From the NCBI GenBank assembly GCA_963664875.1, contig OY761611.1, positions 256,001 through 320,000 on the forward strand: DNA of 64,000 bases. Reading direction: 5' to 3'. This DNA is from Candidatus Kapaibacterium sp. (lineage in GTDB: Bacteria; Bacteroidota; Ignavibacteria; Kapaibacteriales; UBA2268). The notes beneath the pieces are model-generated. The model saw nothing but the letters and a program-made list of their open reading frames with translations, did no database searches and was not told where the DNA came from. Within the stretch, counting starts at the first letter, position 1. Each line of letters begins with the position of its first letter. Positions 37,988 to 48,205 of this stretch are shown here, piece by piece. The translations under genes were made by a program, and so were the position numbers.

Positions 37988-40051
37988 ATGAGCGAACTCT
38001 TGCATAAAATATGTGTCGATTTTTTGTTTGAGACAAACACAAAATCTTTGTATCTCATTAAATCATTTAAAGAAAACTTTTTAGTAGAATTTCATGCGGA
38101 ACGAGACAGAATCAATTATGATATTGTTGATATTCCGCATGATATTAGAATACTTGTAACAACATATATTAAATCAAAAGAAAAGGTAGAAGATTTAGTT
38201 TACTCCAAAGAATTAGACAAGCTCGGAAATAAGTATGTAGTAGTCCCAATATCTGCAAAAGAGCACATAAAAACCTATCTTTTGATTGAAAAAATAAATC
38301 AGGATTTTGATAAAGATAATATTGATTTTTTCAAATCGCTCAACTACTTAATAGAGACAATTTTTACTCTGTACAACAAAGACAAATCTGTTGAAAAGCC
38401 TCATTATAATTCTTCGGATTTTCATTTCAACCCTGAAATATTTGACTATCCTTGTATTTTAATCAGTGCTTTTGATTCTAAAGCTAATAATGCGTTTCAG
38501 CAGAAATTTGGATTATGTCATAGCGTAACCGATTTGAATTCAAGAGAACTAATACCCAATGAAATATTCGATTTGCTTAAAGAAAATATAAAATATTCAG
38601 ATAGTTACATTTTGGATTTCCCCGAAGAATCATATCAGGTTATTTTAAGCAAAAACGATTTTGGAACCGTTTTGCAGCTCATTCCAATTGACAATATGTC
38701 AATTCCCAAAGTAAAGCATGAGACTTATACTTTTTTCAGTGGTCTTAGCCACGAATTGCGTACTCCACTTAATTCAATTATGGGCTATTCTCAACTATTA
38801 TCTACAGATAAATCACTTACACCTGAAAATCAGACAATAGTCGGGCATATCCGTAACAGTGGTGATACTTTACTCCAACTTATAAACGATTTGCTTGACT
38901 TTAGCAGAATAAATTCAGGAAATTATCAACCTAAAATATCAGAAATTCCTTCTTCGGTATTTTTTGAAAGAACAATTAGAAAAGCATTTGAAGAAGCGAA
39001 TTCGAGTATTGAACAGTTTACAAAAATTGACCATAATGTACCTCAGGTATTGATAGGAGATAAAAATCTTTTAAACAGAATTATTACTGCTATAATTGCT
39101 AATGCCATTAAAAATACACAAAAGGGTTTTGTTCGTGCTGAACTTAACTTAATTGGTAAAACGGAAGATAAAGCAATAATAAAATTTGAAGTTAGCGATA
39201 GCGGTAACGGTTTCAAAGATGATGAATTGCGAGTATTATTAAACGAATCAGATGTACCTCTTCAGTCAAAAATCTTATATGCTTATAAACGATTGATTAG
39301 GATTATTAGATTTCTTGGCGGTCGTGTCTATATGGATAGCAAAGTTCAAATTGGAACTAATTTCGGTTTTGTGATAGAACTTCCATACAAAAAAAATGTA
39401 GTACAAACTGCCAATATTTATAGTGAAATTGTAAATTACGAAGGGCCAATCAAGAAAATACTAATAGTTGATGACGATTTTAAAAACAGATTGCTTTTGA
39501 CTACGGTGCTTTCTCCTATTGGATTTGACTTGCAAGAAGCAGAAGATGGTATCGAAGCTATCAAAATTGCCAAATCATTTTTCCCTGATCTTGTATTGAT
39601 TGATTACTTTATGCCCGGTATGAACGGTGCTGAGGCAGCAAAGAATATTCAAAACATTGATGAAGATATTAAAATTCTAATTATCACAGGTAGAGAGCTC
39701 GAAACTGCGAATGATGAAACTTCTTATGATTATATATTGAAACCTTACGATTTTAATATACTTTTTGAAAAGATAAAAAATTATCTAAATATAAATTGGG
39801 TATATGAAAAACAGGAAAAGACAATTCCTTCCAAGGGCAACATTGTCATTTATCCTGATAGAGACATCCTTGTAGAATTGTATCAAAATGCTCTGATAGG
39901 AGATATCAGGAGCCTTACTGCCATATTAGATAAGTTAGACGCTTCAGACTCAAAATATACTGCATTTACATCTCGCATTCGTGAGTATGCAGCCAAATTT
40001 AAAATGAAAAGTATTAGAGAAATGTTACGTCCAAATATTGAAGAGCTATGA
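37988..40051 (+). CDS. Hybrid histidine kinase/receiver with degenerate ATPase domain
   Basis: SHELRTPLN H-box, NAIKNT, DSGNG, no G2 box; REC ILIVDD / LIDYFMP / KPY; C-terminal helical domain. Confidence 0.85.
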   Translation: MSELLHKICVDFLFETNTKSLYLIKSFKENFLVEFHAERDRINYDIVDIPHDIRILVTTYIKSKEKVEDLVYSKELDKLGNKYVVVPISAKEHIKTYLLIEKINQDFDKDNIDFFKSLNYLIETIFTLYNKDKSVEKPHYNSSDFHFNPEIFDYPCILISAFDSKANNAFQQKFGLCHSVTDLNSRELIPNEIFDLLKENIKYSDSYILDFPEESYQVILSKNDFGTVLQLIPIDNMSIPKVKHETYTFFSGLSHELRTPLNSIMGYSQLLSTDKSLTPENQTIVGHIRNSGDTLLQLINDLLDFSRINSGNYQPKISEIPSSVFFERTIRKAFEEANSSIEQFTKIDHNVPQVLIGDKNLLNRIITAIIANAIKNTQKGFVRAELNLIGKTEDKAIIKFEVSDSGNGFKDDELRVLLNESDVPLQSKILYAYKRLIRIIRFLGGRVYMDSKVQIGTNFGFVIELPYKKNVVQTANIYSEIVNYEGPIKKILIVDDDFKNRLLLTTVLSPIGFDLQEAEDGIEAIKIAKSFFPDLVLIDYFMPGMNGAEAAKNIQNIDEDIKILIITGRELETANDETSYDYILKPYDFNILFEKIKNYLNINWVYEKQEKTIPSKGNIVIYPDRDILVELYQNALIGDIRSLTAILDKLDASDSKYTAFTSRIREYAAKFKMKSIREMLRPNIEEL

Positions 40052-41598
40052 TTTCTGAAAAACAAAATAAAGCCACAATACTAATTGTTGACGACATCCC
40101 TGACAATATTGGGGTGTTGTTAGATTTTTTAATGGACAAAAACTTCAGAGTCCTTGTCGCTGAAGACGGCGAGAGTGCAATCGAACAGGTTATGTTTTTA
40201 AAACCTGATTTAATACTGTTAGATGTCATGATGCCCGGGATTGACGGTTTTGAGACATGCAGACGTCTAAAAGAAAACAATCTTACTTCTGATGTCCCTG
40301 TAATTTTTATGACTGCGTTGTCTGATTTGGACGATAAAGTCAGAGGGTTTAATTCCGGTGCAGTTGATTACATTACTAAACCAATTCAACATGAAGAAGT
40401 GCTCGCAAGGATAAATACACATCTTTCTTTGCAACAACTTCGTGAAGAGTTAAAACAGACAAATGACGAATTGGAAAATCGAGTTAAGCAAAGAACAAAT
40501 GAACTATTAGAGATGAATAATAGGTTAGAGGCTGAAATAATAGAAAGAATAAAAGCCGAAACCAAGCTTACACAAACAGTTCAAGAATTGGAACTTCTGA
40601 AAAATAAACTTCAGGAAGAAAATATTTACCTCAAGCAGGAAATCAAAATTCAACACAATTTTGAAGAAATAATTAGCCAAAGCCCTCAATTATCCGAAGT
40701 CTTAAAGAAGTTGGAACAGGTAGCAAAAACTGATTCGACTGTTCTTATTCTTGGTGAAACAGGTACAGGCAAAGAACTAATAGCAAGAGCTGTGCATAAT
40801 ATCTCACTAAGAAGAAAACAGCCGTTAGTTAAAGTAAATTGTGCTGCTTTACCTGCAAATTTGATAGAATCTGAGCTTTTCGGTCATGAAAAAGGTGCTT
40901 TTACAGGCGCACTTTCAAAGAAAATCGGGCGATTCGAATTAGCGAATAACGGAACTATATTTTTAGATGAAATCGGTGATTTGCCGTTAGAGTTGCAATC
41001 TAAGCTGCTTCGTGTGCTCCAGGAAGGAGAGTTCGAGCGTTTAGGGAGTTCGCAGACTCTAAAGGTTGATGTGAGGATTATTGCGGCAACAAATCGTAAG
41101 TTAGAAGAAGAGGTCAAAAAAGGAGATTTTCGGGAAGACCTCTATTATAGATTAAATGTATTCCCTCTGAATTTGCCCCCATTGAGAGAAAGAGACTCAG
41201 ATATTCCTCTTTTAGTAAATCACTTTATTAGTAAATATTCTAAAAAAATTGGTAGAGAGATACTAAAGGTTCCTATCCAAATTATGGATGCCTTAAAAAG
41301 GTATTCTTGGCCAGGTAATGTTAGAGAACTTGAAAATGTAATCGAAAGAGCAGTGATACTTTCCGAAAATGGTATTTTGAATGTTGATGACAGATTTATC
41401 AATACAGATTTTAATACTGAGGATGATGAAAACTCTCAAACAATGCAGGAAATTGAGAAAGCACATATAATAAAAGCTCTTGATGACTGCAATTATATCA
41501 TAGAAGGTAAAAGAGGGGCTGCAAAAAAACTTGGGATGCCTCCGAGTACTCTTAGAGACAGAATGAAAAAGTACAACATCTCAAAACCTACCAAATAA
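40048..41598 (+). CDS. Sigma-54-dependent response regulator (REC-coiled coil-AAA+-HTH; FhlA/NtrC-like)
   Basis: LLDVMMP; GETGTGKE, ESELFGHEKGAFTGA, FLDEIG, DLYYRLNV, WPGNVRELEN, C-terminal HTH; ATGA overlap. Confidence 0.95.
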   Translation: MISEKQNKATILIVDDIPDNIGVLLDFLMDKNFRVLVAEDGESAIEQVMFLKPDLILLDVMMPGIDGFETCRRLKENNLTSDVPVIFMTALSDLDDKVRGFNSGAVDYITKPIQHEEVLARINTHLSLQQLREELKQTNDELENRVKQRTNELLEMNNRLEAEIIERIKAETKLTQTVQELELLKNKLQEENIYLKQEIKIQHNFEEIISQSPQLSEVLKKLEQVAKTDSTVLILGETGTGKELIARAVHNISLRRKQPLVKVNCAALPANLIESELFGHEKGAFTGALSKKIGRFELANNGTIFLDEIGDLPLELQSKLLRVLQEGEFERLGSSQTLKVDVRIIAATNRKLEEEVKKGDFREDLYYRLNVFPLNLPPLRERDSDIPLLVNHFISKYSKKIGREILKVPIQIMDALKRYSWPGNVRELENVIERAVILSENGILNVDDRFINTDFNTEDDENSQTMQEIEKAHIIKALDDCNYIIEGKRGAAKKLGMPPSTLRDRMKKYNISKPTK

Positions 41599-46889: not shown

Positions 46890-47846
46890 ATGGAAAACAA
46901 GAAAATTAAAGTTCTGCTTGTAGATGATCAGGCAATAGTATTAGACTTTCTAAAAAAAGGTTTGGCTCAGGATAATGGGATAGAAGTCATTGACACTGCT
47001 AATGATGGTTACATGGCACTTAATTCTATTCAAAGAAATAAACCTGATGTGATAATACTTGACATGGAAATGCCAAGAATGAATGGTATTCAGTTCTTAC
47101 ATAATCTGATGCCTGTCAATCCAATTCCAACCATAGTGCTATCAGCTCTTACTGAAAAGAATTCAAAGCTAACCGTCGAAGCCTTCGAAGCCGGAGCTAT
47201 TGATTTTGTATTGAAACCTACGGGAGGTGCAAAAGAGCTTACGCGCCTTTTTTCTCAACTTAGGGCAAAAATTCGTATAGCTATTACTAAAGATGTGCAG
47301 AAATTCAAAAAATCTTCTAACTATACGCTTCCCGGCAATGCTATAGACAGGACTACAAAGACTAATCAAATAATCCTTGGTATGGGTGCTTACGAAGTCA
47401 TCAATGAAAAAGAGAATCTATTGAAAATATTTGCTTTAGGTTCATGCATAGGTCTTGCGATGTTTTGTCCGTCAAAGGGCGTCATAGGCATGGCACATAT
47501 TGTTTTACCATCTTCCAAAACAGATTTGGACAAATCAATAGACAAACCCGGGTATTTTGCAGATACTGCAATAAAGGCTATGTTAGATGATTTTGCAAAG
47601 TTAGGTTGCACTTCTAATATGATTTACGCCAAAATTGCCGGAGGTGCAAAAACAAAAGTAGAGCTTGGAGATAGATTTAGCATCGGTCAAAAAAATGCAG
47701 TTGCTGTTAAAGCAGGATTGATTAAATACGGTGTTAAGCTATTAGGCGAAGACGTAGGAGGCAACATCTCCAGGACTGTTTTTTTCAAAATTGGTGATAA
47801 AAAGCTTACTGCTCATCATCCTGAAAAGGGACAATGGGAAGTTTAA
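46890..47846 (+). CDS. Fusion of a CheB-type receiver domain and a CheD-family glutamine deamidase
   Basis: aa1-130: VLLVDD, LDMEMPRMNG, PTIVLSALT, AIDFVLKP (CheB-style REC); aa160-318: LGSCIG, GMAHIVLP, PGYFADTAI, AKIAGGA, IGQKN, EDVGG..SRT (CheD). Confidence 0.88.
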   Translation: MENKKIKVLLVDDQAIVLDFLKKGLAQDNGIEVIDTANDGYMALNSIQRNKPDVIILDMEMPRMNGIQFLHNLMPVNPIPTIVLSALTEKNSKLTVEAFEAGAIDFVLKPTGGAKELTRLFSQLRAKIRIAITKDVQKFKKSSNYTLPGNAIDRTTKTNQIILGMGAYEVINEKENLLKIFALGSCIGLAMFCPSKGVIGMAHIVLPSSKTDLDKSIDKPGYFADTAIKAMLDDFAKLGCTSNMIYAKIAGGAKTKVELGDRFSIGQKNAVAVKAGLIKYGVKLLGEDVGGNISRTVFFKIGDKKLTAHHPEKGQWEV

Positions 47847-47857
47847 AATAAAGGATA

Positions 47858-48205
47858 TTGAAAATGGATTACGATGAAATCAAATTATTAGCTAAATTGC
47901 TTGCGAAAGAACTTGAAGAATCAAAATCTGCAGATTTAGCTCCAAAATGGGAAGGAGCAACGATAGAGTTTATTCCTAGCGATTCTGATCTGGCTAAACA
48001 TAGCATTGAAATTGATAAACTCATGCATAAAATTGTTATGGTTAGAGATAATCTCAGAGTATTAGAGCAACAAATAAACTCCAACGATAATTTGTCAGAA
48101 GGTGAAAAAATCAAGTTCCAAAACTATATTACTAAATGTTACGGCTCACTAACTTCATTCAACTTTATGTTCAAAAAGGATGATGACAAATTTTCGTCTA
48201 AATAA
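47858..48205 (+). CDS. Conserved hypothetical helical protein
   Basis: KWEG..., HKIVMVRDNLRVLEQQINS, YITKCYGSLTSFN look like a widespread uncharacterised family; AAAGGA SD. Confidence 0.75.
   Translation: MKMDYDEIKLLAKLLAKELEESKSADLAPKWEGATIEFIPSDSDLAKHSIEIDKLMHKIVMVRDNLRVLEQQINSNDNLSEGEKIKFQNYITKCYGSLTSFNFMFKKDDDKFSSK

Follow-up and report, generated by a model that had tools for sequence, protein, structure and literature searches.

The stretch of DNA analysed here (the window; 64,000 nucleotides, C1:256001-320000) carries at 46890..47846 on the + strand a gene for a 318-aa protein, REC-CheD, in which the ORF call and Pfam/NCBIfam matches place a receiver in front of what a profile search found to be the only CheD of the host genome. 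The CheB-type receiver domain covers residues ~1-131 (46890..47282, with D12, D13, D58, S85, K109 and P110 located by residue alignment) and is followed by a linker of residues ~132-160 (47283..47369), for which BLASTP shows homology to the CheB2 linker as far as the point where the esterase domain begins, and by a CheD domain of residues ~161-318 (47370..47843; Pfam, alignment and structure match). Pfam matched Response_reg at 8-112 and CheD (PF03975) at 206-307, the latter with 82.6 bits against a cut-off of 25, and gave no match to the methylesterase domain PF01339 in the protein, the six PF01339 matches of the genome lying elsewhere. The top NCBIfam match was CheB for residues 4-157 (E 2e-40) and a T. 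maritima-type CheD for residues 160-308, and none of the NCBIfam whole-protein cut-offs was reached (the best CheD model scored 111 bits against an equivalog cut-off of 240), as is expected because the protein is a chimera of halves. An AlphaFold2 model of the two-domain chain, built on a 44-row alignment (pLDDT 87.8, pTM 0.79), matched T. maritima CheD 2f9z_C with a Z of 27.2 (154 residues at rmsd 1.7) and, for the receiver, that of CheB (3t8y) with a Z of 22.3; the CheD domain is 36% identical to T. maritima/B. subtilis-type CheD.

Within these domains, Asp58 (47061..47063) is the predicted phospho-acceptor, Cys186 (47445..47447) the predicted nucleophile aligned with T. maritima Cys27, and His203 (47496..47498) the predicted catalytic His aligned with T. 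maritima His44. The first-pass annotation, which had assigned the receiver to the CheB subtype and placed D58, C186 and H203, is borne out on both points by the NCBIfam and 3t8y matches and by the residue alignment. Its description of an intact CheD holds for the fold and the Cys-His pair, but it overlooked that the third member of the triad, Thr21 of T. maritima CheD, aligns with Ile180 (47427..47429). In addition, Thr255-Lys256 (47652..47657) lies, in our reading of the T. maritima CheD alignment, at the place where CheC-bearing species have a Met-Phe pair (M101/F102 in B. subtilis). The fusion resembles CheB in layout and CheD in chemistry without belonging canonically to either family.

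A chimeric assembly or a frameshift was ruled out as the source of this architecture by two-domain homologues and by junction-bridging contigs from other runs. The contigs checked across the junction showed no chimeric join: contigs from two further runs bridge it at 47167-47560 and 47276-47479, with 21 and 8 differing letters, and two near-identical contigs that span the whole stretch are possibly the source of the same DNA. Both domains are present in 98 of 120 listed homologues. Comparison of four congeners gave dN of 0.03-0.10 and dN/dS of 0.02-0.08 where computable (dS was saturated in 7 of 12 comparisons). A promoter/terminator scan returned 25 matches against 27.1 expected, which is chance level, and one metatranscriptome placed short contigs on the fusion gene, by which transcription is not established; RNA runs sharing few words with the sequence were left aside.

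The host genome is closed (3.83 Mb, 100% complete), is equipped with flagella, and gave matches to 13 MCPs, 6 CheW-domain proteins, 6 CheB-esterases, 4 CheR and 5 flagellin-type proteins, with no match to CheC or CheX anywhere. Among records that carry a name, the closest is a Candidatus Kapaibacterium MAG (93% identity). Cluster 1 reads HEAT-cheR-two receivers-cheZ-like-cheA1-cheB1, and cluster 2 reads cheA2-cheW-cheR2-cheB2-hybrid kinase-receiver; cheD is not in cluster 2, and its hybrid kinase carries an Hpt domain. As the first-pass annotation had stated, no MCP, CheW-domain, CheR or CheB-esterase match falls in the window, and CheC is without a match genome-wide. Its further statement that the gene lies outside any chemotaxis operon is correct at this locus, but complete chemosensory systems are encoded elsewhere in the genome, and in a sister family the gene is kept in the operon. 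With 13 MCPs, two che clusters and no CheC, the inventory of CheA, CheW, MCP, CheB and CheC led us to reject orphan status. The signalling domain is 28 residues longer in 12 of the MCPs than in the thirteenth, whose C-terminus is the pentapeptide DFGKY; from the spacing of sites against E. coli Tsr numbering, we take the former to be 40H and the latter 36H receptors. PMC7184735 and PMC9321776 describe 36H receptors as cognate to F7 systems, and in the sister family the 36H receptor is encoded inside a cluster-2-type operon. Across 29 distinct 36H receptors, four methylation-register positions are E in some and Q in others, and several Gln do not vary at all. The host's single 36H receptor has Glu at 5/5 register positions examined, indicating that these sites need no maturation in this genome and that what matters in it must be methylesterase action, binding or other Gln sites.

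Among all ORFs of the genome, the fusion receiver is closest to CheB2 (48% identity, E 1e-34), with CheB1 second (42%, E 1e-18), and BLASTP aligns residues 5-162 with CheB2, through the linker to the first strand of the esterase. In a quick tree of 59 receivers, 18 fused rows formed one side of a branch (SH-aLRT 81) beside the CheB2 group, but not inside it, and this weakly supported grouping counts against assigning the fusion to system 2, the chemosensory system of cluster 2. A quick tree built on 61 CheD domains placed 21/21 fused rows in one group (SH-aLRT 93) together with 5 apparently truncated fusions, and the fused CheDs were nested among cheB-cheD-type CheDs.

We looked for fused homologues in related genomes and found them in 39 of 114 genomes of the host's family, each at least 85% complete, and in 9 of 11 genomes of the sister family. 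CheD was present in 40 of the 114, and 39 of these have it in a 318-370-aa frame, with the receiver verified in the same ORF for 33 and the remaining 6 counted by frame length. Order-wide, CheD occurs in 49 of 231 genomes and lies in long frames in 48, all from these two families; nine further families of the host's order, with 106 genomes, yielded none, and in a class sample of 301 genomes long CheD frames were confined to that order. A profile search of 1.84 billion representatives returned 3 full-length fusions among the best 150 matches. The fusion is a real, conserved and lineage-restricted variant of chemosensory adaptation hardware.

Within the host's family, the fusion was inherited together with the components of system 2. 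CheB2 orthologues (at least 61% identity) occur in 42 of 114 genomes, including 39/39 with the fusion, whereas the fusion occurs in 0/72 genomes without CheB2; these genomes are related, so that the co-occurrence does not amount to 114 independent tests and kinship inflates any test on the counts; for the same reason we place no weight on a Fisher test of the co-occurrence. The three CheB2 genomes without the fusion are fragmented (85-94% complete), and three genera each have a member with neither gene (G007, G332 and G394). CheA2 was matched in 40 family genomes plus one partial match, with its C-terminal match in 38 of the 39 fusion genomes and a partial one in the other, and the 36H receptor in 40/114, including 37 of the 39. 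Given that some CheA (76/114) and FlhA (102/114) are distributed more widely than the fusion, the gene goes with system 2 specifically and does not simply mark chemotaxis; in 34 family genomes that have CheA but no system-2 component, the fusion is present in none. No stand-alone cheD was seen within 1.5 kb of cheB2 in 30 family loci. CheC-like matches were found in 14 of 114 family genomes, 7 of them among the 39 with the fusion. The CheC-like loci read (L222-L227) hold a separate receiver/CheC-like/kinase trio in 6/6 cases, and this trio is missing from the host genome.

In the sister family, the fusion lies inside the system-2 operon in 9/9 loci, behind cheB2 in six and behind cheR2 in three. 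Five outgroup loci of Desulfuromonadales and Calditrichota (L031, L033, L034, L039 and L045) have a stand-alone cheD immediately behind a cheB that is CheB2-like (57-66% identical to CheB2), and it is this slot that the sister-family fusion occupies. From these loci and the two trees, one origin from a cheB-cheD pair is likely but not proven, with the root not fixed: the receiver-linker part of cheB would have been duplicated and joined in frame to an adjacent cheD, with CheD taking the place of the methylesterase, and in the host's family the fusion gene would later have left the operon.

The neighbourhood in the host's family is of another kind, with no che gene near the fusion in 15/15 flanking regions read, a dacB or ABC-permease gene directly upstream in 9/15 and a 113-134-aa hypothetical gene directly downstream in 5/15. 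Combined with the altered active-site surroundings in the host's branch, this would suit a phospho-gated deamidase that turned to non-chemoreceptor targets after its exit from the operon, possibly to the 115-aa product of the next gene. However, the fusion is found without system 2 in none of the 72 family genomes concerned and is in-operon throughout the sister family. Non-receptor targets of the fusion are unlikely, and we consider this reading as a whole extremely improbable. The first-pass annotation had raised non-chemoreceptor targets on the basis of a che-free window, a basis that fell away with the 13 MCPs of the genome, and its alternative of a rewired adaptation module gained from the co-inheritance with cluster 2, the in-operon place in the sister family and the missing CheC. 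The downstream neighbour in the window is a 115-aa hypothetical gene (47858-48205), whose protein gave no Pfam/NCBIfam match and fell in Atlas clusters of hypothetical proteins only. About 5 kb upstream of the fusion lies a pair of a hybrid histidine kinase and a sigma-54 activator (37988-41598); this pair is not a likely partner, because it is kept beside the fusion in the same-genus locus L169 and not in the other 14 family loci.

Combining receiver kinship, distribution and operon position, we tentatively favour, at a little under an even chance, the reading that REC-CheD is the CheD of the lineage's second, F7-like chemosensory system, with phosphorylation by CheA2 switching its action on 36H receptors and replacing CheC. 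It is supported by the CheB2-like receiver and linker, the operon slot, the 39/39 co-inheritance, the invariant residues, the missing CheC and the E/Q register sites. The CheB esterase is activated by phosphorylation (cf. the title of PDB 1A2O), and the conserved residues together with the example of CheB suggest that CheD may be gated by phosphorylation in the fusion. CheD deamidates and demethylates receptors according to PMC12654446, and in B. subtilis it is controlled by CheC and CheY~P (PMC3513319). In the proposed mechanism, CheA2~P would phosphorylate Asp58, as expected for CheB2, and phosphorylation would alter the access of Cys186-His203 to receptor helices, most likely by lifting a CheB-like autoinhibition. 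The CheD domain would then deamidate Gln or demethylate Glu-OMe on 36H receptors, forming a second, CheC-free, kinase-driven feedback arm. Since CheB2 is present and is expected both to deamidate and to demethylate, the enzymatic role of the fusion may be redundant, which counts against the proposal, as do the Hpt domain of the cluster-2 hybrid kinase, which makes it another possible phosphoryl donor, and the all-Glu 36H receptor of the host. CheA2 itself (L025:1981-4431; G000:C1:105980-108430) has two Hpt domains with the conserved His in both (H52 and H242) and no P2 Pfam match, and its two Hpt domains might serve different receivers.

A reduced form of the operon was read in three congeneric sister-family genomes that are 97-99% complete (L184, L185 and L186 of G462, G460 and G458). 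It consists of a CheA cut after the dimerisation domain, cheR2, REC-cheD and the hybrid kinase, with no CheB2, and the genomes have a separate cheA-cheW-36H cluster without cheB. The truncated CheA2 comprises the Hpt and dimerisation domains. Loss of cheB2 could have occurred through recombination between two similar receiver sequences, and the three genomes fit a fusion that stands in for CheB. We count it in favour of the system-2 reading that CheR2, REC-CheD and the 36H receptor are kept there with another CheA. On the other side, the three genomes keep the fusion with a truncated CheA2, so that an intact CheA2 kinase is not strictly required, and this weighs against CheA2 as the switch. 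That the fusion is kept beside an intact hybrid kinase in these genomes, and that 12 of the 13 host MCPs are of the longer class, would agree with a different wiring, in which the cluster-2 hybrid kinase or CheA1 phosphorylates the fusion and the twelve 40H-length receptors are modified, linking the two systems. By contrast, the absence of the fusion from the 34 genomes that have CheA but no system-2 component and a receiver much nearer to CheB2 than to CheB1 make such wiring very unlikely.

To follow residues across the group, we used 134 distinct full-length fusions and sorted them on the identity of their CheD domains to that of the query; 96 are short-linker and 38 long-linker proteins. 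The residues D13, D58, S85, K109, P110, S185, C186, H203 and T255 are unchanged in 134/134, and position 256 is variable. PMC7022378 gives the T. maritima CheD triad as Cys27/His44/Thr21. The Thr21 position holds Ile in 96/96 short-linker fusions, and Thr in 34 and Val in 4 of the 38 long-linker fusions; of 42 CheDs that are unfused or partial, 30 have Thr there. According to the same source, NTAN1 shares the CheD fold, and Ser69Ala at the equivalent triad place is ~5-fold less active, whereas Cys and His mutants are dead. Because Ser69Ala retains activity, we infer attenuation, not loss, from the Thr-to-Ile change, and the mechanism proposed for system 2, in whose favour this ~5-fold effect is counted, would have the change lower catalysis without abolishing it.

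The fixed Ile, which counts against the proposal together with the Thr at the B. subtilis M101 place, opens the way to a reading in which phosphorylation governs receptor binding and not catalysis. A weak enzyme would bind system-2 receptors and tune CheA2, the receiver replacing the CheC/CheY~P sequestration loop. The all-Glu 36H receptor of the host and the absence of CheC agree with this, and PMC3513319 presents binding by B. subtilis CheD as more important than its deamidase activity. The same paper reports that CheC-bearing species conserve M101/F102, that most of the deamidase activity is lost in M101 mutants and that F102E no longer binds CheC. Against control of binding stand Cys, His and the Ser preceding Cys, unchanged in 134/134, and a Met-Phe pair, tied to CheC/receptor binding in B. 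subtilis, that is not retained; we find it unlikely.

If gating is dispensed with altogether, the phosphorylated receiver might act as a tether to the kinase or array or as a phosphate sink, with CheD constitutively active. The length of the linker, 29 to 97 residues over both branches, speaks for this, as does the existence of fusions with the reverse domain order, which argues against a single fixed occluding geometry; a sink could be useful because no CheC/CheX-type CheY phosphatase is encoded. However, the linker of the host's branch is short (median 30) and has conserved positions, and the pTM of 0.79 and the alignment of the model to full-length CheB 1a2o over 224 residues, with an rmsd of 4.6, are a weak hint of CheB-like domain packing. 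Complex prediction with receiver and CheD as separate chains scored 0.00 in a run whose controls did not fold, and it weighs on neither side. Overall, a tether or sink appears unlikely to us, and gating by phosphorylation within system 2 is retained as the preferred reading.

Compared with CheD of T. maritima (2F9Z) and B. subtilis, the fusion shares the fold with 36% identity, the Cys and His of the triad and an MCP-bearing genome. It differs in its N-terminal receiver, in Ile for the triad Thr and Thr-x for Met-Phe, in a host genome without CheC and in a gene that lies outside an operon. With CheB (1A2O, 6YMZ and 3T8Y) it has in common the receiver, the linker and the domain order, and the same kinase and substrate class are expected; unlike in CheB, a Cys-His CheD domain stands where the unrelated Ser-hydrolase esterase would be, and the fusion coexists with an intact CheB2 in 39/39 family genomes. 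The CheC-CheD-CheY~P loop of B. subtilis (PMC3513319) places CheD under the phosphoryl output of the kinase, as the fusion would, but control in the fusion would be direct and within one chain, without CheC or CheY~P. In common with the F7 class (PMC7184735 and PMC9321776), the lineage has CheR, CheB and CheD as well as 36H receptors that end in a pentapeptide. It departs from that class in a CheA with two Hpt domains, a hybrid kinase that follows and a fused CheD, and its gene order is cheR-cheB-cheD, in contrast to the cheR-cheD-cheB that PMC7184735 gives for proteobacterial stage-1 F7.

Fusions in the reverse order, CheD-receiver, were found in two groups, one with a CheB-type receiver (5 matches: P0391, P0397, P0399, P0400 and P0404, one labelled Planctomycetota) and one with a CheY-type receiver (3 matches: P0233, P0306 and P0307). 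Planctomycetota is also the commonest phylum of an Atlas cluster of 126 proteins with both domains, a cluster that shows no domain order. These proteins carry the same two domains per chain in the opposite order and with a different CheD subtype, indicating separate origins, and their occurrence in other lineages is counted in favour of the system-2 reading. It is possible, although we would not put it at even chances, that CheC-less systems have repeatedly evolved direct phospho-control of CheD as an adaptation design in its own right, able even to replace CheB, and that the Thr-to-Ile branch was retuned, either towards on/off control or away from deamidation and towards methylesterase action or binding.

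Databases give the fusion automatic two-part names. At first pass the architecture was not known to have been characterised, and we likewise found no description of a receiver-CheD fusion in the literature searched, whose scope did not extend to subscription journals and supplements that could list it. A literature match to 'cheBD' proved to be an operon name, not a fusion protein. Many species have CheD without CheC according to PMC3513319, and no account of how CheD is controlled in them was found within the same scope. Through the fusion, the sensory kinase can probably act on CheD directly, with no need for the usual partner CheC. As a natural chimera under the switch of CheB, it offers a single soluble 35-kDa protein for testing CheD control, and it shows that a receiver module has passed from one enzyme to an unrelated one with the same substrate. 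Two families conserve the fusion, and independent reverse-order fusions run in parallel; its significance is limited in that the parts and the type of pathway are known and the hosts are uncultured.

Several minor observations concern single proteins. P0278, P0305 and P0159 are single-member entries with CheB esterase-CheD joins and a tandem CheD-CheD, which may be read-through or assembly artefacts. Most host MCPs are very large, up to ~1570 aa, and two neighbouring MCPs at ~2457-2466 kb have identical signalling domains. A 364-aa protein of cluster 1 (L024:4847-5938; G000:C1:61843-62937) gave a weak CheZ match. Finally, three lone receiver-esterase (CheB-like) genes lie off the che clusters (G000:C1:2059923-2060957, 1500181-1501203 and 1308071-1309072), and their receivers are unlike those of CheB1 or CheB2.
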